From Candidatus Latescibacterota bacterium (GTDB lineage: Bacteria > Latescibacterota > UBA2968 > UBA8231), in NCBI GenBank assembly GCA_965217585.1, contig OZ244561.1, positions 5,280,001-5,344,000 of the forward strand: a DNA stretch of 64,000 nucleotides, given 5' to 3'. The notes below the pieces were generated by a model, which ran no database searches, had not been told where the DNA came from, and was given only the letters and a program-made list of their open reading frames with translations. Positions 19,998 through 64,000 of the stretch are shown in pieces; the stretch's first letter is position 1, and each line of letters opens with the position of its first letter. The position numbers were made by a program, and so were the translations under genes.

Positions 19998-22247
19998 CTA
20001 GCGCGCTTTGAACATGTGCCGCAGTTGGTCGGCTAGCTCCTTGGTTTTTTCTAGCGTCTGTTGCTGCATGTGGTGTTGCCGCTTTAGGCGCTGGTAGTGC
20101 GCGTACTCGGCGTCGGCGCGTTCGCGCTGACCCGTTTTGAGCAGGAGATGGGATAGGGAGCGACGGGCCTGCAGATCGCGGGGGTGGTGTTGCAAGATGC
20201 GCTCAAAGCGCTGGAGGGCTTGGCGGTACTGACCTTGGTTGGCCTCTAAGGTGCCCATGCTGCGCAAGGCGTGCGCGTTGTCGGGATTGAGCGCCAGCGC
20301 CGCGAGCAAATGACCCTTGGCTGTTTCCTCGTCCCCCCGCTTTAGCAGCAGATCGGCTAAATGGCACAGCCCGGCGAGATGATCGGGTTGATTGGCTAGT
20401 AGCTGCTGATAGGCTTGTTCGGCGCGCTCGGGGTGGGCTTGGATTTCGTATAGCTGACCTAGCAGATAGTAAGCCGCATGGGAGTCCAGTTCGAGTGCTC
20501 GGCGATAGGCCGCTTCGGCTTGCGCCAGCCGGCCGGCAGTGGCTTCGGCCTGACCGAGGCGGAGGTACAGGTGGGCTTGATCTGGTTGCCGCACTAGGAG
20601 CTTTTGGTACTCGGCCGCCGATTCTTGGGCTTGGCCCCGCAGGCGGAGAAAATCCGCTAGCTGGAGGCGGACGTCGTCTTGGTCGGGATAGTGGTCGAGG
20701 AATTGCCGCCACGTGTGGGCGGCATCATCGTAGCGCTGAGTCGCCCCGTACATATTGGCTAGGCCCAGCAGGGCGTGGCGGTGGGCCGGGTCCAGTTCGA
20801 TGGCGCGGCGGTAGTGCTGCAAGGCATTGGTCTTCATGCCTTTGCTCTTATAGACGGCTGCCAGCGAATAGTGGTGGAAGGCGGCCACGTGCAGGCTGGT
20901 CGCCGCGGTTCCGGCGTTGGTGACCAGCAGCAGCAAGGCGAGGGCACCAGCCGACAGATACAAGGGTCTATAGCGCAAACCAGCCAGGGTGCAAGCGCCA
21001 TAGGCGGCCAGCAGCAAGAGACAGGGCACGGCTGGCAAGCGATAGCGGCCCGTGACGAAAAACAACACCACTGACAACATGTAGATCCCCGCAAAGAGCA
21101 AGACGAGATAGGCTGCCGGGGTGCGGCGTTCCGGTTTGAGCAGTACATAGGCCGCCCCGAGCAGGGCGAGAGCCGAGACCAAGCCAAAGGGGAACGCGAG
21201 GCCGTACTTCCACAGCAAAAGGCGCAACAGCGGCGAGTACTCAGCGGCGGAGTACGGATCGGTATTGCGGGGGATCTCGGCTCCGTGCCAAAACAGATAG
21301 CCCTTGTGCAAAAGCAGGGCCAAATAGCTGCCCGGATCGGTGCGTATATATTCCCAGGCTTTGCCCAAAAGGTAGCTTGAGCCAGCCCCTGGCTGGGTGA
21401 TGCCGGCCTCGCGTTGAGGCAGGTCAACCACGTCGCTCCACCCCGCTCCGGGCCGCGCTGCTACGGTGCGGTCGTAGTCCGGGTTGTTGCCGAGGTAGAA
21501 GTTGACCCCCGCGTTGAAGGAGATGAGCACCCACTCGCCGCCGACGATGCGGTTGCGCAGGGTCACCGGGCCTACCAGCAGCAGCAGACCGGCGGCAAAG
21601 ACCGCCACGTGGAGGGCGCAGCGGCCTGTTGCCGCAGCGGGCCACCAGCGATACACCCACCAAGCCGCTACCGGCGCAAAGAGCAACACATTCGGCACGG
21701 CCAAGGTGCCTAGCCCTAGCACGAGTCCGGCGCTAAGCGCAGCAAGTGCGCCGCCCCGGCGCTGGCCCCACAACAAGACTAACAGCAGCACCGCGTCGAA
21801 AAGCACGGCCCAAGTCGTGGGCAAAAGTTCGCCCTCAAAGTAGAGGAAGGGGCCGTACAGCGCCGCTCCTAGGGCGGCTACCCAGCCCACCGTCGGCGAA
21901 AAGACCTCGCGGCCTAGCTTGAGGACGATTAGGCAAGTGGCCGTGCCGGCTAGGGCTTGGAGCAGACGCGGCAGGTAGTAGTTTTCGCCAAAAAAAGAAA
22001 AAAGAACGGCTAGAAAATAGGGGTAAAAAGGAGCCTGCCAGAACGGCATCGGATGCCCAGCCCAAGTGCCGGCTGCCAGTTCGTGGGCGTATTCGGTATA
22101 GCTTCTGGCATCTACAATAGGCGTATCGAAAAAAGGACTGTCGCTGGCTTGGAACAGGTAGCCTAAGCGCTGGCCTAGGGCCAAGACGGCTAAGGCGGCC
22201 AGCTTGGGCCAGTGCAGCGAACGCGCCTTATTTGCCCAAGCCAGCAT
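19998..22247 (-). CDS. GT-C (ArnT/PMT family 39-like) membrane glycosyltransferase with C-terminal TPR repeats
   Basis: VDARSY..YA, FWQAPFYPYFLA, NAGVNFYLGNNP, RYRLP, multiple TM helices; about 8 TPR-like repeats. Confidence 0.85.
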   Translation of the reverse strand: MLAWANKARSLHWPKLAALAVLALGQRLGYLFQASDSPFFDTPIVDARSYTEYAHELAAGTWAGHPMPFWQAPFYPYFLAVLFSFFGENYYLPRLLQALAGTATCLIVLKLGREVFSPTVGWVAALGAALYGPFLYFEGELLPTTWAVLFDAVLLLVLLWGQRRGGALAALSAGLVLGLGTLAVPNVLLFAPVAAWWVYRWWPAAATGRCALHVAVFAAGLLLLVGPVTLRNRIVGGEWVLISFNAGVNFYLGNNPDYDRTVAARPGAGWSDVVDLPQREAGITQPGAGSSYLLGKAWEYIRTDPGSYLALLLHKGYLFWHGAEIPRNTDPYSAAEYSPLLRLLLWKYGLAFPFGLVSALALLGAAYVLLKPERRTPAAYLVLLFAGIYMLSVVLFFVTGRYRLPAVPCLLLLAAYGACTLAGLRYRPLYLSAGALALLLLVTNAGTAATSLHVAAFHHYSLAAVYKSKGMKTNALQHYRRAIELDPAHRHALLGLANMYGATQRYDDAAHTWRQFLDHYPDQDDVRLQLADFLRLRGQAQESAAEYQKLLVRQPDQAHLYLRLGQAEATAGRLAQAEAAYRRALELDSHAAYYLLGQLYEIQAHPERAEQAYQQLLANQPDHLAGLCHLADLLLKRGDEETAKGHLLAALALNPDNAHALRSMGTLEANQGQYRQALQRFERILQHHPRDLQARRSLSHLLLKTGQRERADAEYAHYQRLKRQHHMQQQTLEKTKELADQLRHMFKAR

Positions 22248-24912: not shown

Positions 24913-27900
24913 CTAATAGACTACGGCCACGATGCGGGCCAAGGCCGTGTCGGTGGCACGGTCCGAATCGGCACCGAAATCAATCCGGCATATATAAAGT
25001 CCTGGCGGTACGGTGCGGCCAGCCGCATCGCGGCCGTTCCAGCGGATTTGCTGGGGGCCTCCTGCCACTTGGGTGCTGTTTTCCCATATCAGGCGTCCGT
25101 CCAGTGAGTAGAGGTGCAGACGCGCTTGGCGTGCTTGGGTCACTTGGAAGATGGAAAACGCGACGGTCAGTTCGTCGTTGACCCCGTCGCCGTTGGGCGT
25201 AAATGGGTTGGGGGCCAAGCTCAGGTCGCCGAGGACTTGCCCTCCCACGGGGATGCTCAGCGTCAGTTGGCGGCTGTCTGTTAGCGCAGTGGCGTCGCCT
25301 GGTTCTACTTGCTGCCACAAGCTCCCGTTGGTGTCGGCGGCGACGCGGCGGACAAAAGGCTTAAAGGTGGTTCCGTTGCGAAAGATGGCGGCGGCAAAGC
25401 GCAAGTGGATCAAGCGGCCTGGCCCCAAGACGGCACCGCGTTCGGCTGCCGGCAGCGCGTAGTAGGCTGTGCGCGTCAGGGAGTCGCCCAAGGCGTCAAA
25501 GGGCGATTGGGCCCCGCCGCCGCGCAGTTTGCGAAAGTAGCGAATCGGCCCTTGTTCGGCTGGGGGCAAGGCATCGTACTCAGCGCGGCCAGAAACCGCT
25601 GCCAAGCCGTCGGCGGTCTGCCGCAAAAAGAGAATGGCCCCGCGCTCGGCCTCGTTGAGCAGGCCGTAGGCCACCTCGGTGATTGGGTCGCCGTCCTCGC
25701 CCACTATGACTTCGGCCCCTTGGGGGGTGATGCGGTGGTAGGTCTGGACCGTCTGCTCTGCAGGTAGGGTCTGGTGTGGTTGGGGCAGCAGGACCCAGAT
25801 AGAGTCGGCGTGGTTGCGCCGCACTTGGGCGATGGCCCCAGAAGCATCGGTCAGGTGGCCATCGGCTGCAAGGGTAAATGTCTGCAAGGGACTTCCTCGG
25901 CCTAATTCTTCCTCGGTCCCCATGCTTAGGCTCAACAGGTGCAGCGCGAGTCCGGGAGGAGCTTGTAAGAGGATTTCGTCAAAGCCTGGAGTGCGGTTGG
26001 CCGCCGGCTCGTTTATGAATACCGGGCGCAGATACAGGTCAAACGTGTCCAACCGGCCGACCGAGGCCTGCGTGGGCCATACTTCGGCGGTGAGGGCGCG
26101 GGCCACTGGAGGGGCCAGCTCTACTTCGATTGACCTAATTGAGGCGGCTTGTAGGCGATCTTGGCTGGTAAAGCGCACCTGTAACTGCATGTAATTGCGC
26201 AGCCCGGGGGAACGGACCCGGTCGCCCGGCTGTAGGTACTGCTGGCTCCAAGGACTCCAGCCGCTGCCGAGGGCAAAGGTGGTGTCGATAGGCCCCTTCC
26301 AACTGGTGATCAGCTTGTCCCATTCTTCTTTGGTTTTCTCGTTGCCATTGACGTCGAAATGGCGAATTTGCTGCACCAGCAGATCGCCGGTGCGCGTCCG
26401 CACTTCTGCCGTCGTGCCGGGGGGGTGGGTGCCGGGGGGTGGATCCCAGCGGATGGCACCGAAGTTGCGCGGTCCCGGCAGGCGAATGATATCGGACACC
26501 AGCGCAGCTTGGCTGACAAACCCTTCGGTGTAGAGCAGGACTTCGGTCAGGTCGTAGAAAAAGCCCGAAGTCCGCGCGATGCCCGGCAGGCGCAGGTTGA
26601 GGAAGCGGATGTCTAGGGGTGGGTCAAAGAGGTCGGCGGCGCGCGTAAATCCTCCTTCCATGCGGTCGGGTAGGCTGATCTGTCGCCACCGCAGCCGGCC
26701 GTTGGGATCGCGGCTGCCGTCGGCCACCTCGGCGATGTAGCCGGGAATAAAGGGAACGGCCAAGCGCATGGCGTCGAGCCAGACGCGGGCACCAATATCG
26801 ACGGTGAGAATGCCAGCGGTGGGGTTGGAACTAAACCACGCCGGCATGCGGAAGGTGGTGTTCCAGTCGCCGTCAAAGCCCCCAGCCGGGACTTCCGGCC
26901 CGGTAAAGTTAACGCTACCGCCTCCGTCAATTAGCTTAGGCGATAGGTTGTCGCCCCAGCCCCAGACCTCTACTTCGGCCAGCCGGGGCCGCTCGCGGAT
27001 GTAGTACTCTTTGCGGCCTTGCTGTTCTTGGGGGAGGCTCTCGTAAATAGCCTGCTCTACCGGTTCCTCAAAGCCGACGTCGTCGCGGATGTAGTAGAGC
27101 ACATCGCCCCGTTCGTCGGCTGGCAGGGCATCCCACGCCGCCTCGTCGATTTGGTGTGCCCGCCCCAGCTTGCTGTCGCCAATGAGAATGCGCACGGTCT
27201 GGGCCATGCGGCCGGTCCACTCGGTGCGACCGTCGTCGTCTTCGGAAAAGCCGGGCGTGTCCTCAGAAGAAAACTCCATCGTCCGCTGGTCCGTATTGGG
27301 AGCCTGGGTTTGGCCGACCACCTTGAATTGGAGCACGCGGCTTTGGGCTTGAATGAGCTTCTGCTGGGGGGCTAGCATGACGCGGAACTGGCGGAAGGGA
27401 TCGCCCAAGGTCTCATCGACAAAGTGCAGCACTACTTTCTCGACCACGACCGCGCGGCCCAAGTCGATTTCGATCCACCACTTATCTGGAGTGGCCGCTA
27501 GGTCCGGTTCCCAAAAGGTGGTGCGGTCGCCATCGACAATGTGGGGGGCTAAGGCTTCGTTGGAGCCTACTCGGCTGACGCCGACGCGCTGGACATAGTC
27601 GTACACCGGAAATGGGATTTTATCTTTAGCGCCAAATTCGCGCGTCGATGCTACCCCCGTGCGTTCGTTGCGCAGGCTCAGGGTCACGGTCTTGCCGTCG
27701 CTGCTGAGGGTGGTATCGACGATGGTTAGGAGGCGGTCGTCAATGGGTATCCGGCTGTCGTTACCGGGGAAGCGCTTGAAGTCCCGGTTGAGAAATTTGA
27801 TCAGTTGCTCGGCTTTGCCGAGGGCAACGCTGCCGTCCGCTTCCAAAGTCGGGGTGCGCTGGAGGTTCATAATCGCCCGGTCTGCCTTGCGGATGCCCGG

Positions 27901-28173
27901 TTGGTCCACGGGTTTGGCAAATATTTCGCGATCTTCGGCGATGATGTTGTACACGTGGCGAAAGAAATGGGGCTTGACAATCCCATCTGGATGCACATCG
28001 ACCACGTGGGAAGGCCCGCTCCAGTGTCGCCAGTAGGAAGCCTTGTCGACGATGATGCGGTCGCCCTGCAGACGGTGGCCTAAGGGCGCTTGGGCACTGA
28101 CTTGCTGGAGGGCCAAACAGCCAAAGGCCAAGGCCCAAATTCGGCTCCAATGGCTGTAGCGCTTGCGGTTCAT
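24913..28173 (-). CDS. Secreted protein with discoidin-like domains and FlgD-Ig/CHU_C-like C-terminal domain (paralog 1 of 6)
   Basis: Signal peptide; VDGDRTTFW, WIEIDLGR; WSPWSQ..SPG.R.YMQ; PNPFTPNGDGVND...YSLDGR...WNGRD..G..VPPGLY...VAVVY. Confidence 0.8.
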   Translation of the reverse strand: MNRKRYSHWSRIWALAFGCLALQQVSAQAPLGHRLQGDRIIVDKASYWRHWSGPSHVVDVHPDGIVKPHFFRHVYNIIAEDREIFAKPVDQPGIRKADRAIMNLQRTPTLEADGSVALGKAEQLIKFLNRDFKRFPGNDSRIPIDDRLLTIVDTTLSSDGKTVTLSLRNERTGVASTREFGAKDKIPFPVYDYVQRVGVSRVGSNEALAPHIVDGDRTTFWEPDLAATPDKWWIEIDLGRAVVVEKVVLHFVDETLGDPFRQFRVMLAPQQKLIQAQSRVLQFKVVGQTQAPNTDQRTMEFSSEDTPGFSEDDDGRTEWTGRMAQTVRILIGDSKLGRAHQIDEAAWDALPADERGDVLYYIRDDVGFEEPVEQAIYESLPQEQQGRKEYYIRERPRLAEVEVWGWGDNLSPKLIDGGGSVNFTGPEVPAGGFDGDWNTTFRMPAWFSSNPTAGILTVDIGARVWLDAMRLAVPFIPGYIAEVADGSRDPNGRLRWRQISLPDRMEGGFTRAADLFDPPLDIRFLNLRLPGIARTSGFFYDLTEVLLYTEGFVSQAALVSDIIRLPGPRNFGAIRWDPPPGTHPPGTTAEVRTRTGDLLVQQIRHFDVNGNEKTKEEWDKLITSWKGPIDTTFALGSGWSPWSQQYLQPGDRVRSPGLRNYMQLQVRFTSQDRLQAASIRSIEVELAPPVARALTAEVWPTQASVGRLDTFDLYLRPVFINEPAANRTPGFDEILLQAPPGLALHLLSLSMGTEEELGRGSPLQTFTLAADGHLTDASGAIAQVRRNHADSIWVLLPQPHQTLPAEQTVQTYHRITPQGAEVIVGEDGDPITEVAYGLLNEAERGAILFLRQTADGLAAVSGRAEYDALPPAEQGPIRYFRKLRGGGAQSPFDALGDSLTRTAYYALPAAERGAVLGPGRLIHLRFAAAIFRNGTTFKPFVRRVAADTNGSLWQQVEPGDATALTDSRQLTLSIPVGGQVLGDLSLAPNPFTPNGDGVNDELTVAFSIFQVTQARQARLHLYSLDGRLIWENSTQVAGGPQQIRWNGRDAAGRTVPPGLYICRIDFGADSDRATDTALARIVAVVY

Positions 28174-28199: not shown

Positions 28200-29855
28200 T
28201 CAGAAAGCGGTGAGGAAATCGTCGGGTAGGGCCGCCGCCAATTGCTTTTGGTCTACTTGGATCCGATCGGCGTATTGGTGGCGCAGGGTTTCTATATAGG
28301 CTTGGAACCGCTTCTGCTCCTCAGCCCGGCGCAGCACGTCGCCAATCTGCCGACGGACTTGGGCAAAAGGCATGCGCTCCCCCGGCTGGCGGCGGACGAT
28401 CTCGAATACTGAGAAGCCGTCGTGGACTTGTATCGGCCCGACCAACTCGCCCGGCTGCGCGGCTAGGATATGGGACACCAAGTCTGAAGTTTTCTCCAGG
28501 GGAAAGACGCCGCCTCGCGCGCGGGCTCCTCGGCGTTTGCTGCGCTCTTGGGCTATGGCGACGATGTCAGCCCCCGCTTCGATTTGCCGCCGCACGGCTA
28601 GGGCTTCTTCCTCGGTCTCCACCAGCACTTCGGCCACGTCGATCTGGTCCCGACGATGGAAGCGCTGGGTTTGCTCGTCGTAGTAGCGGCGCACGGCATC
28701 TGGGGCGATGGTGATGGATGCCACTACTTTTTGCTGGCGCAATTGGCTTAGTATGACCTCTTCTCGCAGGTGCTGCCGCACCTCTTCGAGGGCCTCTCGG
28801 TCAATCAGATCCTCGTGGCGGGCCGCTGCCGCAAAGATGTAGGGCTGGAGCAGAAAGCGCTCGGCGAGTTGGACCAAGGCGGCGCTGTCGGCTGCGGCGT
28901 TGAGGTTGCGGTTTTTGAGTTGGTCGAGCAGCTCACCTAGAGGCACTTGGCCGCTTGCAAACTTGAACAAAGGCGTCCGTTCTTCCTCTGGCGTCCGTTC
29001 TAAAGCCGCCAACGGCTGGCCTTTTGCCAGCAGGAGGCGCAACCCCGGCGCATGGAGGTTCCAGTCGTATTTGTGGGCCAATTGCTCGGCCCGCGCCGCC
29101 CGCGCTTCGCCGAGTCTTTCCTCTTGCAGTTCTTGGAGAATTTCGTCCCGGAAGTCGAAGTAGGACAACGGCCGTTCCTCAGTAAAGCGCACGACGCAAA
29201 AGCCTGCGGAGTGGGGTAGCACGGGCGATAAGACACCCAATGGCAAATCGTAAAACAGCGAATCGGGAAAGCCCATGCGGCGGATGGATTCCACCCGGAG
29301 CCAGCCTAGTTCGCCCCCGTTGGCCGCGTCGGGCGTGATGGAGTAGCGGGCTGCCACTGCGTCAAACGGGGTGCCGGCGGCCAACTCGGCCACGGCTTGT
29401 TCTAGCTCCGGCCGCTCCTTGGTCATAAGGCCCCAAGTCATCCGCTCGAACGTGCGGTGGAGGCCCTTGCGCTCGAAGCGCTGTTTGATCTCGGTCTCTT
29501 CAACGAGGGGCGGTTGCACGGGTTTGCGTTTGAGATAGAGGGCGACCAAATGCCGACGAATTCTGCGCTCCAGTTGGCGCTGGACTGCAGCCGCGGTGTC
29601 CAAACCGAGGGCTTGGGCTTCCAGCCACATGAGGTGGTAGTCGATGAGAGGTTGGAGGTACTCGCGCCGCGCTGCCGGGCCTTCTTGGCGGCTCCGCTGG
29701 CTTTCGTTCAGCCCTAGGATGTAGGATCGGAGGTCCTCGGCGGTGATGGACCGCGCGCCTATTCGAACCACGATGGGGGATTCCTGTTCACCACAGCCCC
29801 ACAAGAAGGCCCCGATCAGGGCGCAAGCTATCGTAGTGATGCGTACTCTGTCCAT
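28200..29855 (-). CDS. Peptidyl-prolyl cis-trans isomerase, SurA/PrsA/PpiC type, probable lipoprotein
   Basis: FLWGC lipobox; GTPFDAVAARYS...ANGGELGW and GADIVAIAQERS...RGG rotamase-like domains. Confidence 0.85.
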   Translation of the reverse strand: MDRVRITTIACALIGAFLWGCGEQESPIVVRIGARSITAEDLRSYILGLNESQRSRQEGPAARREYLQPLIDYHLMWLEAQALGLDTAAAVQRQLERRIRRHLVALYLKRKPVQPPLVEETEIKQRFERKGLHRTFERMTWGLMTKERPELEQAVAELAAGTPFDAVAARYSITPDAANGGELGWLRVESIRRMGFPDSLFYDLPLGVLSPVLPHSAGFCVVRFTEERPLSYFDFRDEILQELQEERLGEARAARAEQLAHKYDWNLHAPGLRLLLAKGQPLAALERTPEEERTPLFKFASGQVPLGELLDQLKNRNLNAAADSAALVQLAERFLLQPYIFAAAARHEDLIDREALEEVRQHLREEVILSQLRQQKVVASITIAPDAVRRYYDEQTQRFHRRDQIDVAEVLVETEEEALAVRRQIEAGADIVAIAQERSKRRGARARGGVFPLEKTSDLVSHILAAQPGELVGPIQVHDGFSVFEIVRRQPGERMPFAQVRRQIGDVLRRAEEQKRFQAYIETLRHQYADRIQVDQKQLAAALPDDFLTAF

Positions 29856-29856
29856 G

Positions 29857-31935: not shown

Positions 31936-34098
31936 TCAGTAGGCGACTGCAATAGTGCCAACTTGTTCTTCTGCGCCTTCGTCGGTGTCTATTCGAATGC
32001 GGTAAACATAGACCCCTGGGGGCACCAGACCGCCGTCGGCCCGGCGTCCATCCCAAGTGTACTCTACCGCCCCGGTTTTGATCTGCGTAGTAGCCAAGGT
32101 CTGGACCTGACGGCCCGATAGGTCATACAGGGCCACTTGCAGGGGCCGACGCGCGACCACTTCGCGCACGTCAAAGGACAGCCGCGTGGCGTCGTTAACC
32201 CGGTCGCCGTTGGGGGTAAAAGGGTTGGGATGCACCCGCACATCCGCCAACAGCCGACCACCTACTCGGGTGCGCACGGCCAGCACGTCGCCAGAGTAGC
32301 GGAAGGTGGCGTTGCCCGGCTGTACCTTCTGTTTGATACGATCGGGATCGTCGCTGTTGTACACCCAGCTAGAAAATTCAGTACCGAAGCGCAGTACCGG
32401 CACTTTGAAGGCGACCTCTACCTGCTTGAAGCGGTCGGTTTCCGGACTTGATAGCTTGCGGTCTAGCGCCACGATGAGGCGGTCGGTTAGCACTTGGGGC
32501 GGGAAGGCCGCCAGATCGACCTCTACGCCGCCGATTTTGACGTGATAGACGGTGTCAACTTGGGTATAGGTGCCGATCTCGAGCCGGTCGAAGCCCGTGT
32601 CGCCGGTCTGGAAATCCGGGCGTACCACGTAAGTGAAGCGCTGGGAGCGGGCGTCGTGGACTTCGACCGGCCAGATTTCGCCCAGCAGGGCAGAAGCCGA
32701 CAGGGAGTGGGCTAGCTGAAACTGTAGTTCGTTGAGGCGGGGGGCCTCGGTTTCGGTGGCAAACAAGGTGATCTGCAACTGCATATAGCGTCGCGGGGAG
32801 GGCGACTGGAGGACCGTGCCGTCGGCCCAAGCAGCCGCTTCCTGAGCGTGGTCGCGCAAGCCGTCCTCAAAGTCGTAGGGAGGCGACCAATAGCTCCAGT
32901 GGTCGCGGTCGTATAGTGGGGGTTCGCGGTCGCGGACGGGCAGGCTGAAGTGCTCGTCAAAGCTAATTTCCTCGGCATCGTCGGTAATGGCGTTGGGCTG
33001 CCAGTAGATATGGGGATTGTGGTCGGTGCCCGTGCGGGTGCGGATTTCGACTTGGGTGCCGGGCGGTCGCTGGCCACTCCAGCGGATTTTGCCCCAGTTG
33101 ATGGGTTGGCCAAAGTCGAGGATGTCGGTTAGATAGCGGGCTTTGCGCACAAAGCCTTGTCCGTAGATCTCTACTTCGGCGATTTCCCAGTCGCGCACCG
33201 GATCCAAGGCGCGGATGGCCACCCAGCGGATGTGCTGCAGGGGGAAGCGAAAGTCGACCACCACATCGAGGTTTTCGCGCACGCTGCGCAGAATGGTATA
33301 ATCCGGATCGTTGCTCACCCGGTAGCCGCCGAGGCCAGCCGAGGAGAGGACTTTGTGCCAGCGCAGTCCTTTGGGGACCGTGAAGGCATCGTCGGCGATG
33401 GGAGCACTGTTGTCGGCTATGCCTATTTCATACCACTCGAGAAAATTGGCGGCAAAGCTCTCCTCGCCAAATGTGTCGGGATCGGGCTTGGGCTCGGCCA
33501 TGGCGGCGATGATATGGGCATCTTCGGTCTTGCTGAGCCGGGGGTAGAAGCGGATGCGGTTGATGGGCATTTCAGCGCCGAAATTGGTAATGGTGTTGTT
33601 GCGGAAGCCGCGTCCCACCCCCGGGGGTGCTCCCTCGCGCTGGACGAAAATGCGAAACATGGCCGAGGTGCGGTCGCCGTCGTAGGCCAGCAGAGTGCTG
33701 GGCAGGGTCATGCCCATGAAACCTGAACTCTCGCCTTGGGTGACGCGGATATTGCCGCCCAGATCGTGAAAGGGCACTTGGCTCTGGCCGTTCTGGTCCC
33801 AACTGACGATGTGGGTCAGGTTCAAGTTGGGATCAACCCAAGACGGAGTCATGCTGCCGTCGGCGTAGTTGATCAGGGTGTCGGCGCCAACCCACTGGGC
33901 GGACGTGCCCACTGACTCGGTTCGCACGACTTGACCGTCGGGGCCGTACACAGTGTAGAAGCCGCCTTCTTCGCCCTCCAGAGCGAGGGGGATGGTCCAG
34001 GGGTTGCCGTCCGCTCCGCCTAGCGCGAACTCGGCCCAATCGCCCCGTGCCGGACTCGCCAGCGCAACGACCAGCCATAACGCCCCGTGTTTTCTCAT
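31936..34098 (-). CDS. Secreted FlgD-Ig/CHU_C-like C-terminal domain protein (paralog 3 of 6)
   Basis: ATG at 34098 with signal peptide; INRIRFYPR, WSYWSPPY, SPSPRRYMQ, PNPFTPNGDRVND, terminal AVAY. Confidence 0.8.
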   Translation of the reverse strand: MRKHGALWLVVALASPARGDWAEFALGGADGNPWTIPLALEGEEGGFYTVYGPDGQVVRTESVGTSAQWVGADTLINYADGSMTPSWVDPNLNLTHIVSWDQNGQSQVPFHDLGGNIRVTQGESSGFMGMTLPSTLLAYDGDRTSAMFRIFVQREGAPPGVGRGFRNNTITNFGAEMPINRIRFYPRLSKTEDAHIIAAMAEPKPDPDTFGEESFAANFLEWYEIGIADNSAPIADDAFTVPKGLRWHKVLSSAGLGGYRVSNDPDYTILRSVRENLDVVVDFRFPLQHIRWVAIRALDPVRDWEIAEVEIYGQGFVRKARYLTDILDFGQPINWGKIRWSGQRPPGTQVEIRTRTGTDHNPHIYWQPNAITDDAEEISFDEHFSLPVRDREPPLYDRDHWSYWSPPYDFEDGLRDHAQEAAAWADGTVLQSPSPRRYMQLQITLFATETEAPRLNELQFQLAHSLSASALLGEIWPVEVHDARSQRFTYVVRPDFQTGDTGFDRLEIGTYTQVDTVYHVKIGGVEVDLAAFPPQVLTDRLIVALDRKLSSPETDRFKQVEVAFKVPVLRFGTEFSSWVYNSDDPDRIKQKVQPGNATFRYSGDVLAVRTRVGGRLLADVRVHPNPFTPNGDRVNDATRLSFDVREVVARRPLQVALYDLSGRQVQTLATTQIKTGAVEYTWDGRRADGGLVPPGVYVYRIRIDTDEGAEEQVGTIAVAY

Positions 34099-34135
34099 GC
34101 GGTCCCCTTTGGATGTACGCCTTTGGCAAAGAACG

Positions 34136-34170
34136 AAAAAAGCCCGTGTTCCAGCGAGGAACACGGGCTT
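34136..34170 (-). terminator. Intrinsic terminator downstream of the WGRIK-motif protein gene
   Basis: 13-bp perfect stem aagcccgtgttcc / ggaacacgggctt with a U tract on the minus strand. Confidence 0.85.
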
Positions 34171-34220: not shown

Positions 34221-35147
34221 CTACTTAAAGCGGGACTTAATGCGGCCCCAGCTGTCGTCCTCGACCGCAGTAGAAGCGACAAAGGCCGGATCCGGCTCAG
34301 CCAGAAACCAATCGTTGACGGACGCGCAGCAATTGTCAAGAGTGCTCCAGTAGCCGCAGCAACCGGGTGTGCGATAGTTGTTGAAGTCGCCGTCGTTGTC
34401 GATCTGGACGATGGAAATGTGGATGATCTGACCTTCTTCCAGATCCCATGCTTCCACATCCTCGGGCTGGTAGCCGCCCTCTAGGCCCTTGGGGAACGAG
34501 CCTATGGGCGTGAGGCCCATTTCGTAGTAATAGGTGCTCTCGCCGAATTCGTCGCCATCCCAAGTGTAGTTGAATTCGAGCCAATCGGTGCCGGGCCATA
34601 TCCACTCGGTGCCGGTCAAATCGCCGGGCCGCATCCAGAACCAGTCGCCGAGGGTCGGATGGATGGGCACCGCGAAGTTATAGCGGGTGTTGATGCTGAT
34701 GTTCTCGTCGTTGATGTCGCTGTAGCCGCCGTCATCGGCATAGGCATCGTGGTTATAGGTAAACGACACCTCCCACGAATCGTCCTCGCTCCAGTGACTG
34801 GTGCGGTCCATGTTGTGCTCGTCGTCGAAGGTCTGGGTGGCCATATAGATCTTGTTGTCCGTGTCGTTCCAGCCGACCCGGTGCAACATGCTGAAGTCGG
34901 TGACGTCCCAGTCGGCGTTGCTCCAGCCTTCGGGCACTAGGCCGCGGGCATCGTTGAAGACCGAGTTGTCGATGCCATAGGAGGCTGGTACCCCGTCCCA
35001 GTCGCCGTGATTGCCGTCGATGGTGGGGGTAGCCCCGTCGGGAAACTGGACGACGAACCAAACTGTGCCGGCATCCCAGTGAGCTTGGCTCGTATTGGGC
35101 AGGGCCGCTAGGGCGAAGACTGCCAAGAGAATAGCAATGCGTTTCAT
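34221..35147 (-). CDS. Acidic secreted protein (CBM9/DOMON-like PTIDG..DW start) with C-terminal AVEDDSWGRIK motif
   Basis: Strong AAGGAGGT RBS, signal peptide, PTIDGNHGDW, VGWND..NKIY, terminal AVEDDSWGRIKSRFK. Confidence 0.7.
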   Translation of the reverse strand: MKRIAILLAVFALAALPNTSQAHWDAGTVWFVVQFPDGATPTIDGNHGDWDGVPASYGIDNSVFNDARGLVPEGWSNADWDVTDFSMLHRVGWNDTDNKIYMATQTFDDEHNMDRTSHWSEDDSWEVSFTYNHDAYADDGGYSDINDENISINTRYNFAVPIHPTLGDWFWMRPGDLTGTEWIWPGTDWLEFNYTWDGDEFGESTYYYEMGLTPIGSFPKGLEGGYQPEDVEAWDLEEGQIIHISIVQIDNDGDFNNYRTPGCCGYWSTLDNCCASVNDWFLAEPDPAFVASTAVEDDSWGRIKSRFK

Positions 35148-45882: not shown

Positions 45883-45939
45883 GGGAGGATTGGGCGTTGG
45901 GCGTATTGCGGCGGGCGGACCTTGCATTACAATATAAGT

Positions 45940-47477: not shown

Positions 47478-47578
47478 GCTCTCTCAGTGGGTGAGAGTGG
47501 CACACGCCGTCGCAGGAGACGGGGCTCTCGTAGGGCTGCGGAGTAACATCCTCTCTGGAGCCGGATCACAACTTGAAG

Positions 47579-51580: not shown

Positions 51581-52870
51581 TCAGGCATTAACTCCGTAGA
51601 CCATCGCCGGATTGTCGCGAAAGGTCGCTTGGGCCACGTCGAGCGCTGTCGACTCGGATAGCAAGCCCTCTTCCAGCAGAGCTCCCAGCGCATAGGCGAA
51701 ATTCCGGCGTGCCATCTGCAAGTGTCCGTAGACCGTCTCGACCTGCTGCAAGTCATCCCCAAAGGCGATGATTTTGTTGTAGGGCACCATCTGGAGCCAC
51801 TCTCGCAGATCTAGCCGAGACCCGAAGGGGGAGATTATGTGGATCCAAGACATATTCAGATAGACATTGGCAAAGGTCTTGCCCAACACGGCACCCTCGC
51901 GCAGATAGGGGAAGCCGGCATGGGAGAGGTCAAAGCGGACTTGAGGAAAGGCCTGCAGCAAGGGGATGAGTGGCACTGGACTACACCCTTCCATACCCCC
52001 ATTGTTGCCAGCTCGCATGCCTAGGTGGAACTGGACAGTCAGGTCAGCTTCCGCAGCGGCCTGGCAGCACTCGAAGACTAGGTAGTCCTCCAGCAGTGCA
52101 CCTTCTGCCGAATCAAGCCCAGCGTAGTCGCCCTGCAACAGACGGTCGAAAATAACAGCGGCTTGGCCGGCGTCCCGCTCTTTGAAGTCCATGCGGCGGT
52201 GGTAGGATTGCGACATTTTGACCCCAGCCACCCGGGCTTCCTTCCAGTCTTGGCACACCTGTCGAATTACTGCGACGTGCTGGCGTAGATCGCCGATGGA
52301 CACATCGTAGTCGCGCTCTATCGCGTGGATTTGCTCAGCCGTGCGGAGCATGCTGAAGCGGTTGAGGCGGGGCAGGGGCAGGAATAAGGTCCGGTCCACC
52401 TCAATCAGATCTTCCATATTGACCACTGACATTGCGAGATTGGCCCGCTGCTGCAGCACCGTTTTGTAGAAGCCCGGTTTGCTATGTGCTTGGATGGCCT
52501 CAGAGAGCGGTTCAACCGTGGCAGCCGTCAGATCGTCGAAGCCGAGCAGATCGCGGAAGCCGGTCAAGATGCACTGGGAGTACCCGGTCAGGCGGATCCG
52601 GTTCCAGTACGGCTCGAACAGACACCACCGCTGGTCCAGCGGGCGTCGAGCGTCGAAAAGGGCCTCTTTATTCTCGGGAGAGAGGCCGGCAACCACCAAG
52701 TCGGCGGTTGGATAGGCGTGGTTGAAAAAGGCGAGAGCGTCTATCTCCTGCGCTAGGCGCTCGGCTTCCGGCCCCATGTGGGAGTGGGAGTTGACACACG
52801 GAATTTTTTCAATTTCTGCAAAGAGAGACTCCACCAATCCCAGATCTGGCGCAGAGACGGTACTTCGCAT
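51581..52870 (-). CDS. Amidohydrolase superfamily metal-dependent hydrolase
   Basis: NSHSH (HxH), GVK, QFHLG, SHAGFPY, NVYLNMSW, KIIAFGDD. Confidence 0.85.
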   Translation of the reverse strand: MRSTVSAPDLGLVESLFAEIEKIPCVNSHSHMGPEAERLAQEIDALAFFNHAYPTADLVVAGLSPENKEALFDARRPLDQRWCLFEPYWNRIRLTGYSQCILTGFRDLLGFDDLTAATVEPLSEAIQAHSKPGFYKTVLQQRANLAMSVVNMEDLIEVDRTLFLPLPRLNRFSMLRTAEQIHAIERDYDVSIGDLRQHVAVIRQVCQDWKEARVAGVKMSQSYHRRMDFKERDAGQAAVIFDRLLQGDYAGLDSAEGALLEDYLVFECCQAAAEADLTVQFHLGMRAGNNGGMEGCSPVPLIPLLQAFPQVRFDLSHAGFPYLREGAVLGKTFANVYLNMSWIHIISPFGSRLDLREWLQMVPYNKIIAFGDDLQQVETVYGHLQMARRNFAYALGALLEEGLLSESTALDVAQATFRDNPAMVYGVNA

Positions 52871-52921: not shown

Positions 52922-55699
52922 TCAATCTTTCAGGCTGGCGTACATCGTCATAAACACGGTACTATCCAGCTGCGACCGGTCATCTCTTTCGACTCGCTCG
53001 CGACTGATTCTACGGATACTGTAGCCGAGTTGGGCCGTAAGCACATAGCCTAGGTACTGCCCCCTGTTCGAAAGTTGCATAGCCAAGACCGTGCTGTTGA
53101 AATCCTCGGTGAATTCACCCGCTGCTAAATCGTCCTCATCAACCACCGAATTCCTGAAGAAGAGTTGTTCTATACCCGTCTCTATGGTCGTTCGCCGCAG
53201 AACGGGGAATTTAAAAGTCAGGAAGAACAAACCAGTCCATTGATCTCGCACAGGGCGCACACCTCCCATAGAATAAGGAGTATTGTCCTTGAGCAATTCG
53301 CTCTTGATCTTCGGTCGCACCGTCAGAGTTTTGTACTGGTACAGATAGTCGGCCTTGTTGATGATCCCGAGGAAACGCGTATCGTCCTTAAAACCTAGAT
53401 TGTTACCTTTCTCCCGCTGCCTCACGGTCTCGTACTTGAATTTATTGGAAAAATTGACCCCGATATTTGTCCGACGGTCCAAACCCAGCCAAAAGGTATT
53501 GATATAGGTATCTTGGGCGAAGAGGGGATCGTCTATTGCTTGGTGCGATCCGGGCAGACCTGGAACTTGTACCCATTGAAAGAGATCGTCCTGAATATTG
53601 TCTTCCGCCTTTTTGATCATGTCGAAGATGCTCACCTGTCCGATCCGGGCGTACTCCTTTTCAAAGCTCACTAGGGCGTACGTGGTCAGATTTTGGCGGT
53701 CGTCCGAAAGGAGCTGTTCGCGGGCCTGCCCGGCGGTGAGTTGCAGGTGCGGAGTTACCTGATTGCGCAGGTACAGGTTGTAGCCCTTGCGATCCCTCTT
53801 GTAAGGATAATCGGGCAGGTTGTCGTTTTCGAACTGGTCGACCCAGCCGTTGTTGTTGAGATCGATACCGAAGAGGTATTCAGGGCGGTCTGAACCATAG
53901 CGCAGGAAGGGTTCCTCGTAGTCAGGGAAGCGGTTCTCACTGAAGATGTTGCTGTTTTGGTTGAAGTCGGAGATGAAATCGTTGTTCTGATCCCAGCCGG
54001 GGAACACCGCCTCGTCGGCGAAACCTTCGGCGGATCTTCCGGTTCTGGTAGCGCGGAATTCCTCTCCGGTCCTAGGATCTTGATAGCGCCGCTTTTGGTC
54101 GGGTTTCTTGTCCTGATCGTCGTTGTCATCGACGAAGTCATAGATGCTCCTGGTCCCGTCTTCGTAATCTATCCGGCCGCTACCGTCCGATATGAAGGGA
54201 CTGGTATTGTAGGCCTCATCCATGTAGAAGCCCTCGACAAAGAGGGACCAAGAGAAGACCGATTTGGACAGATTCATCATCCAGGCTTTGGCGTTTTCGT
54301 CACCGACGAGTCCCGAGTAAGCCCTGTGCGTCTGCACCCGGCGGTTGGGGTATTTTCTGTACTGGTGGTTCACATCGAACTCGGTGTAAAAGTCAAATCC
54401 CAGGAAATCCTGGGCCTCGATCGTGAAGCCCAATAGCTGGTTAGCAGTGGGCAAGCCGTAGTTGAAGACCACTTCGCGCTTATTCGATCCGTCCTGAATA
54501 TTGCCTTCGGCCTGGGCCATCAGCAGAAAGACCGGCTGTCCTTCAAAGTTGGTCTGCTGATCGGAAGTGATCTCGATCCGATAGTCGTTGACTAGGACCA
54601 GTCTGAAGCGGAGATCCCGGATGTTGTTGATGGCATCCTTGTCGTCGAGAATCACGGCTAGGTCGTTCAAGTCGTAACGCAAGGTGATCTGTTCCGTACC
54701 GTTGGCCGTGCGCACGCCTTCTATGATGGTGCCCCCCTGCCTATGGGGTGTGAAGCCGATCTCATTGCCGACTAGCACGGTGTCTCTGTCTCCGATAGCC
54801 GTCGCTATTTCTACATTATCCGCTAGTAGGACGCTCCCCCCGACATCATCGGCCGGTGAGTCGTCGCTCAGCCGGATGACAATAGTACTGATCTGGTTTT
54901 GTAATTGCAGCGAGGTTAATTCCCCTTTGAAGGGATTGCCCTCAAAGCTCTGCACGGTCCCCCGGCCGTTGTGGGAATTGACGAAGACCCCTCCCAAGGT
55001 AATGGCATCACCTAGCCGGACTCTGGTCCGGCCCCCTATCAGGTTGGTGTAGTTGTTGAAAGAGGCCGGATTCGGGTCGGCGATGAAGCCCGGTGCGCTG
55101 ATGCGAGAAAAGATACCAGTTAGCTCGACCACGTCCGACATGAGATCGACTTGGGCACCGTTGTACACAGACTTGCGAAAGGTCATTGGCGTCAGGGTCG
55201 TGACCAGTTCGTCGCCAACGGAAATGGAAAAGGAATATTGACCTTTCTGGTCGGAGGCTACAATCAATGAGCTAAAGAAACCGGCATATGCTCCTCTTTT
55301 CAGCAGACGGCTGCCCTCGGAGATTCTCGGGTGATCCTCGGTCCAGTCGTAGACCAACCATCCTCTGGTCAGGAAATTTCCGTACACATCGTAGAAATAA
55401 TCGCCCCAGAGGCTTTGCGCCACATATCTCTGATAGGGGTTGCCAGCGTAGTTAGTGTACTGCCAAGTCTGCCACTGGTACTCCTGATACAGCTCTTGGG
55501 GCAGATACCGTTTCCGCACCGATGGCTCCACGTTGCCCAGCAGGGTCTTGGGACCCTCAGAGCGATACACCACTGTGCCGTCATTGGCTTGGTGCCCTAA
55601 GCGAGCTCCATAGTTTTGCGCAGCCCATCCAGTAGCGGACGATAAAGCTAGTACGCAGAGTATCCCCACAACATACCACGAGCCGTACCTTTTTAGCAT
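52922..55699 (-). CDS. Large exported putative outer-membrane protein (paralog 2 of 3)
   Basis: RKRYLPQELYQEYQW..WQYTNY, TTLTPMTF.K, LSDDSP, DDNDDQD, FPGWDQNNDFISDFNQN, GIDLNNNGWVDQFEND; terminal strand VFMTMYASL. Confidence 0.7.
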   Translation of the reverse strand: MLKRYGSWYVVGILCVLALSSATGWAAQNYGARLGHQANDGTVVYRSEGPKTLLGNVEPSVRKRYLPQELYQEYQWQTWQYTNYAGNPYQRYVAQSLWGDYFYDVYGNFLTRGWLVYDWTEDHPRISEGSRLLKRGAYAGFFSSLIVASDQKGQYSFSISVGDELVTTLTPMTFRKSVYNGAQVDLMSDVVELTGIFSRISAPGFIADPNPASFNNYTNLIGGRTRVRLGDAITLGGVFVNSHNGRGTVQSFEGNPFKGELTSLQLQNQISTIVIRLSDDSPADDVGGSVLLADNVEIATAIGDRDTVLVGNEIGFTPHRQGGTIIEGVRTANGTEQITLRYDLNDLAVILDDKDAINNIRDLRFRLVLVNDYRIEITSDQQTNFEGQPVFLLMAQAEGNIQDGSNKREVVFNYGLPTANQLLGFTIEAQDFLGFDFYTEFDVNHQYRKYPNRRVQTHRAYSGLVGDENAKAWMMNLSKSVFSWSLFVEGFYMDEAYNTSPFISDGSGRIDYEDGTRSIYDFVDDNDDQDKKPDQKRRYQDPRTGEEFRATRTGRSAEGFADEAVFPGWDQNNDFISDFNQNSNIFSENRFPDYEEPFLRYGSDRPEYLFGIDLNNNGWVDQFENDNLPDYPYKRDRKGYNLYLRNQVTPHLQLTAGQAREQLLSDDRQNLTTYALVSFEKEYARIGQVSIFDMIKKAEDNIQDDLFQWVQVPGLPGSHQAIDDPLFAQDTYINTFWLGLDRRTNIGVNFSNKFKYETVRQREKGNNLGFKDDTRFLGIINKADYLYQYKTLTVRPKIKSELLKDNTPYSMGGVRPVRDQWTGLFFLTFKFPVLRRTTIETGIEQLFFRNSVVDEDDLAAGEFTEDFNSTVLAMQLSNRGQYLGYVLTAQLGYSIRRISRERVERDDRSQLDSTVFMTMYASLKD

Positions 55700-62823: not shown

Positions 62824-64000
62824 TCAGTACGCTACATGGACCACCCGCTGCACAAAAGTATTATCGGCCGAGCCAGAATCCACATCCACCTTTACCCTCG
62901 CCAAGTATATCCCCGGAGGAACTGGCTCGCCCAAATGATCCTTGCCATCCCACCGAAAGACATAATTGCCGCGAGGATCTGGACGGCGTTCCTCTATCCG
63001 GTTGGTCTCAAACCCACTCAGGTCGTAAACGGTCAGAGTCACCGGTCTCTCAGCACCCACCCGCGCTACGCCGAAGCTGAATACCAGCTCATCGTTGACG
63101 CCGTCCCCATTGGGCGTGAATACTCGCGACCCCAGTCTGAAATCCCTAATAATTTCGGTCCCCCTGAGAGCTAGGACGGTGACGGTCTGGCTGCTGACCA
63201 GTTCCGTGGGATCGCCCTCGTCAACTCGCTGCCAGAATCCAGGTACGGCGGAATTCTGTACCAGGGCTCCAAAGGAGGCACTATTGCCGAATATGGTGGC
63301 GCGAAACCGGATCTGAACTAGTTCCGTTCCGCCGCCAATTTTCTCGTCTAAGCGGAACCTGATGGAGCCGGCTGGCGCATCGGTCAGAGTCAGATCCGCC
63401 GGTGCGTAGTTAGTGGTTTGTCCGCTCTCGAAATTATCCTTGCTTCCCGTCCGCACTTCGAGCAACTCCATTGCAGTACCCGCCGTGGCTTCTAAGGTGA
63501 TCTCGTCGAAACCTTGATCTGTCGCAGTGAAATCGGGCCGGATGAAGTAAGAGAATTCCTCAGGGGTGCCCACGGTCTCAATTCGGGTGGGCCATACTTC
63601 TCCCACCAGCCGATCAGCAACTGGATCTGAGGTGTTGATGGCAATGGAGCGGAGGGTGGCACCCGCGTCCGACCTATCCGTGAGCAATATGAGCCGAATT
63701 TCCATAAACTGTCTGGGACTGGGGGATTTGATCGCTTCCCCGGACCGAGTGTACGGCACACTCCACGTGCTCCAGTCGTCGCCCGGTTTGAATGTGCTGG
63801 TGATATCGCCCTTTTTGGACTTAGGCAGCTTTTTGTAGCGCTTCTCGGTGACGACCTTGCCCTTGGAATCGTGGAAGATCTTCTCTTCTATCAACTCATT
63901 GCCCGTCCGGGTCTGCAGCTGGACCTGGGTCCCAGTCGGCGTATCCGCCTCCCACTCGACGGAAATCAGGTTCTTAGGTTCGTTAAATTGAATTAGATCC
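62824..64000 (-). CDS. Secreted FlgD-Ig/CHU_C-like C-terminal domain protein (paralog 6 of 6), 5' end outside window
   Basis: Frame open to the window edge; WSTWSVPY, SPSPRQFME, LVGEVWP, GFDEI, VFTPNGDGVND, WDGKD, VPPGIY, terminal HVAY. Confidence 0.8.
   Translation of the reverse strand, partial: DLIQFNEPKNLISVEWEADTPTGTQVQLQTRTGNELIEEKIFHDSKGKVVTEKRYKKLPKSKKGDITSTFKPGDDWSTWSVPYTRSGEAIKSPSPRQFMEIRLILLTDRSDAGATLRSIAINTSDPVADRLVGEVWPTRIETVGTPEEFSYFIRPDFTATDQGFDEITLEATAGTAMELLEVRTGSKDNFESGQTTNYAPADLTLTDAPAGSIRFRLDEKIGGGTELVQIRFRATIFGNSASFGALVQNSAVPGFWQRVDEGDPTELVSSQTVTVLALRGTEIIRDFRLGSRVFTPNGDGVNDELVFSFGVARVGAERPVTLTVYDLSGFETNRIEERRPDPRGNYVFRWDGKDHLGEPVPPGIYLARVKVDVDSGSADNTFVQRVVHVAY

Follow-up and report, generated by a model that had tools for sequence, protein, structure and literature searches.

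The window analysed here (64,000 nucleotides of contig OZ244561.1, assembly GCA_965217585.1, from a Candidatus Latescibacterota bacterium) holds two minus-strand gene clusters, termed cassettes A and B. The gene set of these clusters recurs across genomes beyond chance, and each cluster is one copy of a modular envelope cassette, of which Latescibacterota genomes contain several diverged versions. Each window cassette encodes one S, one M and one L protein, three classes of secreted protein with a C-terminal domain (CTD) of the type found in type IX secretion system (T9SS) cargo, together with one or two barrel proteins of ~900 residues (B, of types B1 and B2). All open reading frames (ORFs) named in a first-pass annotation of this DNA, made by a model from the letters and their ORFs, are present in the ORF listing at the positions that it gave. 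Cassette A reads, in order from 35147 to 19998:

34221..35147, minus strand: W protein, 308 residues, with a signal peptide, CBM9-like, with an invariant TAVE..SWGxIK tail
31936..34164, minus strand: CTD742, class S by the tree, 742 residues; CHU_C 31.1 bits, FlgD_ig 39.2 bits
29857..31914, minus strand: CTD685, class M, 685 residues; FlgD_ig 47.6 bits, CHU_C 34.8 bits, TIGR04183 25 bits (cut-off 23)
28200..29855, minus strand: double-parvulin peptidyl-prolyl isomerase (PPIase) chaperone, 551 residues; Rotamase_2, Rotamase and Rotamase_3 matches
24913..28173, minus strand: CTD1086, class L, 1086 residues, with a discoidin-type domain; CHU_C 33.8 bits, F5_F8_type_C_2 30.5 bits, F5_F8_type_C 27.1 bits
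22228..24888, minus strand: barrel B886, B1 type, 886 residues, the sole barrel of cassette A; 43% identical to B928
19998..22247, minus strand: GT-C (PMT_2-like) membrane glycosyltransferase with C-terminal TPRs (GT-C/TPR), 749 residues; TPR families at 1e-20 or better, PMT_2 21 bits (cut-off 26.1)

Cassette B reads, in order from the window end to 51581:

62824..63999, minus strand: C-terminal 391 residues of a class L CTD protein cut by the window end, with counterparts in the L clade; FlgD_ig 30.2 bits, CHU_C 25.2 bits
60881..62785, minus strand: CTD634, 634 residues, class S, placed in the S group by the tree; FlgD_ig 28.8 bits, CHU_C 22.7 bits
58635..60839, minus strand: CTD734, class M, 734 residues, directly upstream of the B1 gene; CHU_C 38.2 bits, FlgD_ig 36.1 bits
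55789..58575, minus strand: barrel B928, B1, 928 residues; AlphaFold2 model and Foldseek matches
52922..55699, minus strand: barrel B925, B2, 925 residues; 42% identical to B928, B2 clade support 0.994
51581..52870, minus strand: Amidohydro_2 enzyme that ends the cassette; Pfam 35 bits

The genes of cassette A are separated by gaps of 1-56 nt, with one 20-nt overlap of the GT-C/TPR gene over the end of the B886 gene. The intergenic gaps of cassette B are 38-89 nt. The true start of CTD742 is probably a methionine ~22 codons downstream of the listed start. Cassette B contains the genes that the first-pass annotation had listed, but the cluster is incomplete, as the window end cuts it. In the near-identical loci L002-L005 of other genomes the cassette extends upstream with a GT-C/TPR gene, a W gene and a full class L CTD protein of 856 residues; the nearest window paralogue of the partial protein is CTD1086. 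In total, 38 ORFs of the window were scanned against Pfam and NCBIfam.

A pattern scan of genome contigs based on the B alignment gave at least 649 stretches. Of these 649, 636 were confirmed as coding for a relative of B, and the top 80 were analysed as loci. These 80 loci span 45 genome records, with at most five loci per genome, and carry the NCBI taxon labels Latescibacterota (62), Gemmatimonadota (16), Myxococcota (1) and Handelsmaniibacteriota (1). The nearest relatives of B928 are 96-97% identical and come from Candidatus Latescibacterota metagenome-assembled genomes. Labelling of the 883 locus ORFs of at least 120 residues by BLASTP against the window proteins identified 217 CTD, 138 B, 63 PPIase, 56 GT-C/TPR and 53 W proteins, along with 34 DUF6785, seven amidohydrolase and four FGE proteins.

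Presence per locus was counted in the 60 loci with full 10-kb flanks; because the search was anchored on B, the counts describe what accompanies B and not the reverse. Class M is present in 58 loci, S in 56, L in 45 and W in 45, and S, M and L occur together in 43. Homologues of the PPIase are found in 55, of GT-C/TPR in 39, of DUF6785 in 27 and of Amidohydro_2 in four. Most of the 60 loci (43) carry two B genes, while 15 have a single one and two have three. The matched B ORF was not recovered by ORF calling in three of the 60 loci, and in 55 of the remaining 57 a class M gene is the same-strand gene directly upstream of it; a DUF6785 gene occupies that place in the two exceptions. Co-occurrence and adjacency of the families, which had been suggested from the window, are thus seen in loci of other genomes. 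The PPIase and GT-C/TPR are core parts of the cassette, as had been proposed, and the W protein, first noticed for its WGRIK motif, is a part of it as well, now refined to a CBM9-like family. However, DUF6785, proposed as a further part, is a frequent neighbour rather than a core component, and Amidohydro_2 is an accessory of one cassette type.

Comparisons of pairwise distances showed that M proteins track the B1 proteins of the same locus (Mantel r = 0.97, n = 66, p = 0.001), and likewise the S (0.96, n = 57), L (0.98, n = 46) and PPIase proteins (0.97, n = 50; p = 0.001 in each case). These correlations indicate that inheritance and duplication affect a cassette as a whole, with no shuffling of its parts to be seen, although common ancestry by itself would also produce them. 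Apparent B1-B2 and DUF6785 fusions in loci L047 and L052 (ORFs of 1181-1839 residues) were rejected as artefacts of longest-ORF calling in an overlapping frame and provide no Rosetta-stone evidence.

All six CTD proteins of the window match CHU_C (PF13585) and/or FlgD_ig at the extreme C terminus, CHU_C above the Pfam cut-off (27 bits) in four of the six and FlgD_ig above its cut-off in five. The six are mutually related (CTD685 and CTD734 are 35% identical over the full length). Their alignment showed invariant columns at T293, R294 and G296, W387/W390, S391 and Y394, E459 and P462, G488 and F489, T642-D650 (TPNGD..ND), W696 and G698, V706-Y711, and V732 and Y734, which match the ordered motifs of the first-pass annotation. 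A FastTree phylogeny of 204 CTD proteins (199 of at least 560 residues from the loci and five from the window) placed CTD1086 and the full-length counterparts of the partial window protein in the class L clade (53 leaves, support 1.0), and CTD734 and CTD685 in the class M clade (70 leaves, support 0.994). Class S comprises the remaining 81 leaves, including CTD742 and CTD634; its support is 0.478 under midpoint rooting, so that S is perhaps a grade and not a clade. The CTD proteins are therefore paralogous as described in the annotation but not interchangeable cargo, as they form three classes, one of each per cassette. The barrels form two classes.

The C-terminal domains were further compared using the last 130 residues of 78 proteins, namely the six of the window plus 72 of the 75 that remained from the loci once copies at least 80% identical had been removed. 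At E <= 0.01, CHU_C matches 78 of 78, FlgD_ig 77, TIGR04131 61, TIGR04183 44 and the C-terminal end of PorU 71, in agreement with the T9SS-type domains called in the annotation. The AlphaFold2 model of the class M protein CTD734 (33 sequences; predicted local distance difference test, pLDDT, 88) is a chain of beta-sandwiches. Its Foldseek matches are carbohydrate-binding modules of family CBM32 (4a41/4a44 and 4zz5, TMt 0.71-0.76), lectin-bearing galactose oxidases, immunoglobulin-like (Ig) and Fn3 domains of C5a peptidase, RbmA and PorU, and an in-situ S-layer protein (7ptp). No enzyme fold was found among these matches apart from the lectin domain of galactose oxidase, and no catalytic domain was found in the S, M and L proteins. 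In a profile search of the PDB, the M profile matches FlgD at residues 662-718. The discoidin-like N-terminal regions reported for the CTD proteins are supported by the fold of the M model and, at the Pfam level, in one protein of six (CTD1086, with cut-offs of 27.8 bits for F5_F8_type_C_2 and 28.2 bits for F5_F8_type_C), but not by Pfam in the other five. Each S, M or L protein thus appears to be built from a signal peptide, followed by non-catalytic beta-sandwich domains of CBM32/discoidin-like and Ig-like fold and, at the C terminus, an Ig domain of T9SS type. Homologues of M are publicly named 'hypothetical', 'FlgD immunoglobulin-like domain containing protein' or 'gliding motility-associated C-terminal domain-containing protein'.

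Such C-terminal domains could mark S, M and L as ordinary cargo, exported by a canonical T9SS (SprA, PorV, PorU) encoded elsewhere in the genome and then either anchored or released, as happens in Bacteroidota, with the B proteins as merely co-transcribed porins or structural proteins. The matches to the T9SS CTD models and to the PorU end agree with this explanation, as does the gliding-motility name of some homologues, and passages of PMC4454575 place Latescibacterota in the Fibrobacteres-Chlorobi-Bacteroidetes (FCB) group. However, the position of M next to B1 in 55 of 57 loci, the make-up of one protein of each class and the joint divergence are hard to explain without a functional link, and the FGE-sulfatase-domain protein of the window (45856-47091), considered as a GldK, was rejected at 85 bits against a cut-off of 350. 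Ordinary T9SS cargo is therefore a distinctly unlikely explanation.

The three B proteins of the window are 40-43% identical over the full length and have no Pfam or NCBIfam match. At E <= 10, no Pfam family was found for these three or for three B proteins of the loci, and in particular no Plug, TonB_dep_Rec, Usher, SLH or PorP_SprF. Searches of PDB sequences with a B profile gave nothing meaningful (best E 0.073, an acetyltransferase), and a profile of distant B relatives found nothing there, including no SlpA chain. B928 has more than 1099 homologues of ~930 residues, every named one of which is 'hypothetical'. A profile of 104 B proteins, run against 1.84 billion sequences, recovered 1020 representatives at 50% identity with E <= 1e-3, 374 of them at E <= 1e-30. 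In the ten distant B clusters that were looked up, every named member is likewise 'hypothetical', and the labels include Ignavibacteria, Bacteroidota, Gemmatimonadota, Latescibacterota, Handelsmanbacteria and Pirellulaceae. The system had been called lineage-specific, which holds for the close family but not for these distant unannotated barrel relatives, with their Ignavibacteria, Bacteroidota and Handelsmanbacteria labels. The nearest Atlas clusters of B are unnamed, and the closest named one, at 0.89, is DUF6029, a barrel resembling TonB-dependent receptors.

The AlphaFold2 model of B928, built from a 34-sequence alignment (pLDDT 67, predicted TM-score 0.64), contains ~30 long antiparallel strands. 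Among the Foldseek matches listed at E <= 1e-3, all are outer-membrane barrels (MtrB with E 1.7e-8, LptD, SlpA at ranks 3-5, FimD/PapC ushers, porins and TonB-dependent transporters), in line with the barrel-like nature first assigned to the ~900-residue proteins. The unannotated family of B1 and B2 therefore models as a very large outer-membrane beta-barrel of ~30 strands. Counted from the C terminus, connections of 2-5 residues alternate in the model with loops of mostly 5-125 residues (14, 8, 15, 26 and 5, with one of 2). Such alternation is typical of periplasmic turns and outer loops, and its parity places segment 505-630, which is not resolved in the model, as a loop of ~125 residues, probably on the outer face. 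The segment is the most conserved part of the family and is rich in Asp and Asn (DDNDDQD, WDENNDFISDFNQNDN and DLNNNxWIDRFEDDD); judged by its residues, it looks like a set of calcium-binding loops. The N terminus of B is hydrophobic and is followed by a conserved Gln, and the last residue of B928 is not aromatic (..YAGVEQ). Mature B proteins start with this nearly invariant Gln directly after the signal peptide (AQxYGxRLG). The start recalls the 'Q-rule' for Bacteroidetes signal peptidase I substrates, which PMC5837995 reports, together with its failure for the FCB group as a whole.

A tree of 139 B proteins has its deepest split at supports of 0.994 and 0.999. The B2 side holds 57 leaves, B925 included, all encoded second in a tandem or after the PPIase gene. 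On the B1 side, 78 of the 82 leaves are B proteins encoded after M (B928 and B886 among them), and the other four are long-branched second-position genes of one cassette type. B886 groups in the B1 clade with the single-barrel cassettes. A co-fold of B928 (30-928) with the C-terminal domain of M (640-734) scored 0.00; it was run without controls and does not bear on binding either way.

The best structural matches of B belong to MtrCAB, LptDE and chaperone-usher systems, in which a very large barrel holds or exports a partner macromolecule of the same operon. However, no sequence relation to these systems exists, and cytochromes, LptE, pilins and a PapD-like chaperone are all absent from the cassette. 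Pfam gave no Usher or PapD match in the cassette proteins, the chaperone of the cassette being a parvulin PPIase. In size and strand number B also resembles the 30-strand barrels SlpA and OmpM. It differs from them in having no SLH or coiled-coil part, no match of any window B protein to SlpA_C (PF21620) at E <= 10 and no PDB sequence match. SlpA_C was found below threshold in four of 16 distant B relatives (17-30 bits, cut-off 35), which is a lead only.

These likenesses bear on the assembly of a fibre, coat or adhesin, in which B would be an usher-like or SlpA-like S-layer anchor, with the parvulin serving as its chaperone in the periplasm and S, M and L as subunits that polymerise or form a coat. 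The ushers and SlpA among the Foldseek matches, the sub-threshold SlpA_C relatives, and 7ptp and RbmA among the M matches would fit such an assembly, as would the operon logic of a chaperone, a large barrel and several Ig-domain subunits. However, the cassette has no usher, PapD or SLH match, the B model finishes with strands of the barrel and lacks the usher C-terminal domains, and the profile of distant relatives retrieves no SlpA chain. Diverged cassettes beside varying catabolic genes also fit substrate specificity better than a single coat. Assembly of this kind is thus improbable, and it is just as improbable that the main role is adhesion or a protective layer rather than nutrient capture.

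The W protein of the window has no Pfam match at E <= 10, and a W profile found nothing in the PDB at E <= 10. CBM9_1 (PF06452) is carried by 12 of 64 W homologues, one of which is named 'cellulose/xylan binding protein with CBM9 domain'. Alignment of 23 W sequences showed an invariant His after the predicted AxA site, a DxDHSGG motif and a C-terminal TAVE..SWGxIKAxF tail; the tail motif occurs in 46 of 53 W proteins and in two of the 830 other ORFs of the loci. A 460-residue ORF at 14257-15639 (plus strand) of locus L053 that was not labelled W has SWGQLK near its C terminus and may be a longer W variant. The invariant His is expected to be the first mature residue (AxA|H), and a second invariant His lies in DxDHSGG. 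This pairing of an N-terminal His with another His is reminiscent of the histidine brace seen in copper proteins, lytic polysaccharide monooxygenases among them.

The PPIase has weak PpiD/SurA/PrsA-like NCBIfam matches, and LWGC at its N terminus makes it probably a lipoprotein. The GT-C/TPR protein of cassette A has seven hydrophobic segments. With a PMT_2-like polytopic N-terminal part and C-terminal TPRs, it is built like the TMTC O-mannosyltransferases, which modify the beta-sandwich adhesion domains of cadherins according to PMC7001481 and PMC7801869. Unlike the eukaryotic TMTC proteins, the two GT-C/TPR proteins of the window are bacterial and match PMT_2 at or below the cut-off (27.1 and 21 bits against 26.1). 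The second of them lies between the cassettes with the following genes:

35266..37206, minus strand: DUF6785+DUF6784 polytopic membrane protein, 646 residues, upstream of cassette A, ~10 hydrophobic segments; Pfam 400 and 103 bits
37296..38837, minus strand: third GT-C-like membrane protein, 513 residues, eight hydrophobic segments; NCBIfam arabinofuranosyltransferase N-terminal 6e-12, PMT E 0.026
42061..44064, minus strand: DUF6785+DUF6784 membrane protein, 667 residues; Pfam
44068..46104, minus strand: second GT-C (PMT_2) glycosyltransferase with TPRs, listed ORF 678 residues, true start probably further downstream; PMT_2 27.1 bits (cut-off 26.1), strong TPR matches
47573..49603, plus strand: DUF6785+DUF6784 membrane protein, 676 residues; Pfam
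49616..51571, plus strand: DUF6785+DUF6784 membrane protein, 651 residues; Pfam

A GMC oxidoreductase, a weak HTTM-like membrane protein and the FGE-sulfatase-domain protein are also encoded between the cassettes. DUF6785 adjoins a GT-C-type gene twice (42061-44064 with 44068-46104, and 35266-37206 with 37296-38837), and the HTTM-like protein and the GMC oxidoreductase lie between these two pairs. Given this repeated pairing, the function of DUF6785 might lie in the handling of glycolipids or glycans and not in the import of peptides or oligosaccharides. One of the four DUF6785 proteins (42061..44064) has a weak OPT (PF03169) match (E 0.017, 14.2 bits against a cut-off of 25.8), collinear with profile positions 2-566 of 623. 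For the protein at 47573..49603 the nearest named Atlas clusters, at 0.77-0.79, are 'peptide transporter' and OPT, which is a lead only.

In the loci of other genomes, 27 recurrent clusters of unlabelled neighbours were found, including PhyH dioxygenases, a sulfatase, MR_MLE, an HpcH aldolase, a 2-hydroxyacid dehydrogenase, Amidohydro_2, an ABC ATPase and SBP_bac_5. The neighbours differ by cassette type and are largely catabolic or transport proteins. FG-GAP/ASPIC-UnbV proteins of ~510-620 residues are the commonest unlabelled neighbours, with 33 members in 22 loci (for example L014-L020, L025, L026, L037, L043 and L053-L055), and pentapeptide-repeat proteins of ~510 residues occur in 11 loci.

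The cassette is best read as encoding a Sec-exported, chaperoned and possibly glycosylated lectin complex held on its own barrel or barrels, which would work like the type B CTD/PorP-SprF pairs of Bacteroidota and resemble polysaccharide utilization loci (PULs) in copy number; the probability of this reading is roughly 45%. Passages of PMC9143113 and PMC12618676 describe type B CTD proteins of Bacteroidota that bind cognate PorP/SprF-like barrels encoded beside them. The cassette shares with this cargo the Sec signal peptide, the ~100-residue C-terminal Ig-like domain matching CHU_C, the CTD gene directly upstream of an outer-membrane barrel gene, and the occurrence of several cognate pairs per genome. 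The parallel is drawn from the adjacency of M to B1 together with the CHU_C-type domain. Unlike the type B pairs, the cassette supplies each barrel or barrel pair with three fixed cargo classes and a CBM9-like protein. It also has a parvulin chaperone and a GT-C/TPR of its own, TIGR04131 scores below the cut-off, and a place in the phylum Latescibacterota; no T9SS core protein is present among the scanned window ORFs. As the barrel is of a different and far larger family, the likeness is one of working and not of membership. No described system accounts for the whole set, which agrees with the earlier view of an uncharacterised system. The openly searchable literature (main texts) yielded no description of the cassette, the B family or DUF6785, and no paper linking Latescibacterota with type IX secretion; passages of PMC4454575 and PMC5596340 describe no such cassette.

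With its lectin-type non-catalytic proteins, giant barrels and two biogenesis factors, the conserved core looks better suited to assembling a surface complex than to a catabolic locus. That the classes occur in fixed stoichiometry points to a hetero-oligomer rather than to alternative cargo. Capture of glycans is the likeliest purpose, in view of the lectin folds, the many diverged cassettes and the differing catabolic genes near them. In the proposed mechanism, all cassette parts would cross the inner membrane via Sec, and the parvulin chaperone would escort the giant barrels and/or the lectins across the periplasm. Using a lipid-linked donor, GT-C/TPR may attach O-linked glycans to the beta-sandwich proteins. 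S, M, L and W would reach the cell surface and be held there by C-terminal domains on the cognate barrel or barrel pair, forming a lectin complex that captures a particular glycan. Many diverged cassettes beside different catabolic genes would then amount to a PUL-like repertoire of specificities.

Several observations weigh against a lectin complex on its own barrel. At ~900 residues the cassette barrel has roughly three times the length of PorP-like proteins, comes from an unannotated family and, unlike the barrels of the PorP/SprF pairs, has no PorP_SprF or other Pfam match at E <= 10. The TM-scores of the B model to known barrels are low, about 0.17-0.33 (0.17-0.25 relative to the query, 0.19-0.21 for the ushers); the matches point to a fold class and not to any specific family. 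The model is of moderate confidence (pLDDT 67), and the conserved N-terminal 120 residues and the acidic loop fall outside its modelled part. TIGR04131 reaches 16-25.4 bits (cut-off 35) in five of the six window CTD proteins and is unlisted for the partial one. FlgD_ig scores equally well or better in these proteins, and since the domain is equally FlgD-like, we infer rather than observe its role in sorting or anchoring. The likeness to CBM32 and CBM9 is at the level of the fold and of homologues. The Mantel correlations would also be expected from shared descent alone, and 15-21 of the 60 loci are without L, W or GT-C/TPR, partly because the flanks end at 10 kb. The catabolic neighbours are not conserved, and no recurring glycoside hydrolase is present among the 27 neighbour clusters. 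An association between any two parts of the cassette is likewise something that we infer.

A PUL-like import system shares lectin capture with this reading and differs in what passes the barrel. B1/B2 would be a TonB-independent counterpart of SusC that admits the glycan, S, M, L and W would play the role of SusD and surface glycan-binding proteins, and DUF6785/6784 would be the inner-membrane importers. The cassettes resemble SusC/SusD PULs in their many paralogous loci, in a large outer-membrane barrel with surface carbohydrate-binding proteins, and in their location near substrate-specific catabolic genes. All soluble parts have non-catalytic folds of the carbohydrate-binding type, and the several diverged cassettes of a genome have differing catabolic and transport genes as neighbours. 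Between the window cassettes there are four DUF6785 genes, DUF6785 is found within 10 kb in 27 of 60 loci, and its weak OPT and peptide-transporter likeness would suit an importer. TonB-dependent transporters are among the lower Foldseek matches of B, and the DUF6029 cluster stands near it.

However, in contrast to SusC/SusD PULs, the cassette proteins have no Plug, TonB_dep_Rec or SusD match in Pfam or NCBIfam and include no SusD-like protein. Without a plug, a barrel of ~30 strands would leak, unless it were closed by its N-terminal region or by the acidic loop. The binding proteins bear a CTD instead of a lipid anchor, and the conserved accessories are the biogenesis factors, chaperone and glycosyltransferase, rather than glycoside hydrolases or regulators. 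DUF6785 is absent from 33 of the 60 loci, and the best structural matches of B (MtrB, LptD, SlpA and the ushers) are barrels that act outward or are structural. Among the 38 window ORFs there is no TonB-dependent receptor or ABC ATPase, as had been noted earlier, and ABC and SBP genes lie beside some related cassettes. Import through the barrel is thus unlikely, less so than the cargo and coat explanations.

The lectin complex could also belong to a self-contained, T9SS-independent machine for export and anchoring, in which the B1/B2 pair (~30 strands each) would be both translocon and dock for the three CTD lectins and the CBM9-like protein. The invariant, calcium-binding-like outer loop could dock the lectins in a cohesin-dockerin-like manner, and the machine would come with its own parvulin chaperone and a TMTC-like protein glycosyltransferase. 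This extension of the lectin-complex reading is doubtful, about as much so as import.

Outside the cassettes, the plus-strand region 6187-13084 of the window is a probable anti-phage defence island. It encodes, in this order, PDC-M23A (6187-7032, 327 bits), a 1265-residue SNF2 helicase that matches DrmD (396 bits) and has a PDC-M23B-like N terminus, and a TmtA-like Sacsin/HATPase protein (208 bits). Directly downstream lie IS1595-, IS4-type (DDE_Tnp_1) and split IS630-type (DDE_3) transposase genes, listed at 13148-14020, 16174-17313 and 17654-18726. The GC content is 0.48-0.53 over 8-20 kb of the window, compared with ~0.60-0.65 in the flanking parts. A minus-strand gene at 3025-5319 encodes a protein of 764 residues with an MFS_1 transporter region and C-terminal HEAT/PBS-lyase repeats, an unusual fusion.

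Latescibacterota are described in passages of PMC4454575 as a widespread, uncultured phylum of the FCB group thought to live on complex polysaccharides. With the cassette they gain a repeated and diversified surface module built from parts that are unnamed in current annotation, B and W having no Pfam or NCBIfam model. Profile models of B, W and the S, M and L classes could label several hundred kilobases of 'hypothetical' genes, and new glycan specificities may be sought in the CBM32-like and CBM9-like domains. If docking of the CTD proteins on B is borne out, the logic of CTD cargo with a cognate barrel would reach beyond PorP/SprF and beyond Bacteroidota, and if these genomes have no T9SS core, the cassette would represent a new route of surface display. 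Should the self-contained machine prove true, it would be the Latescibacterota counterpart of the SusCD PULs and a new route to the surface of diderm cells.

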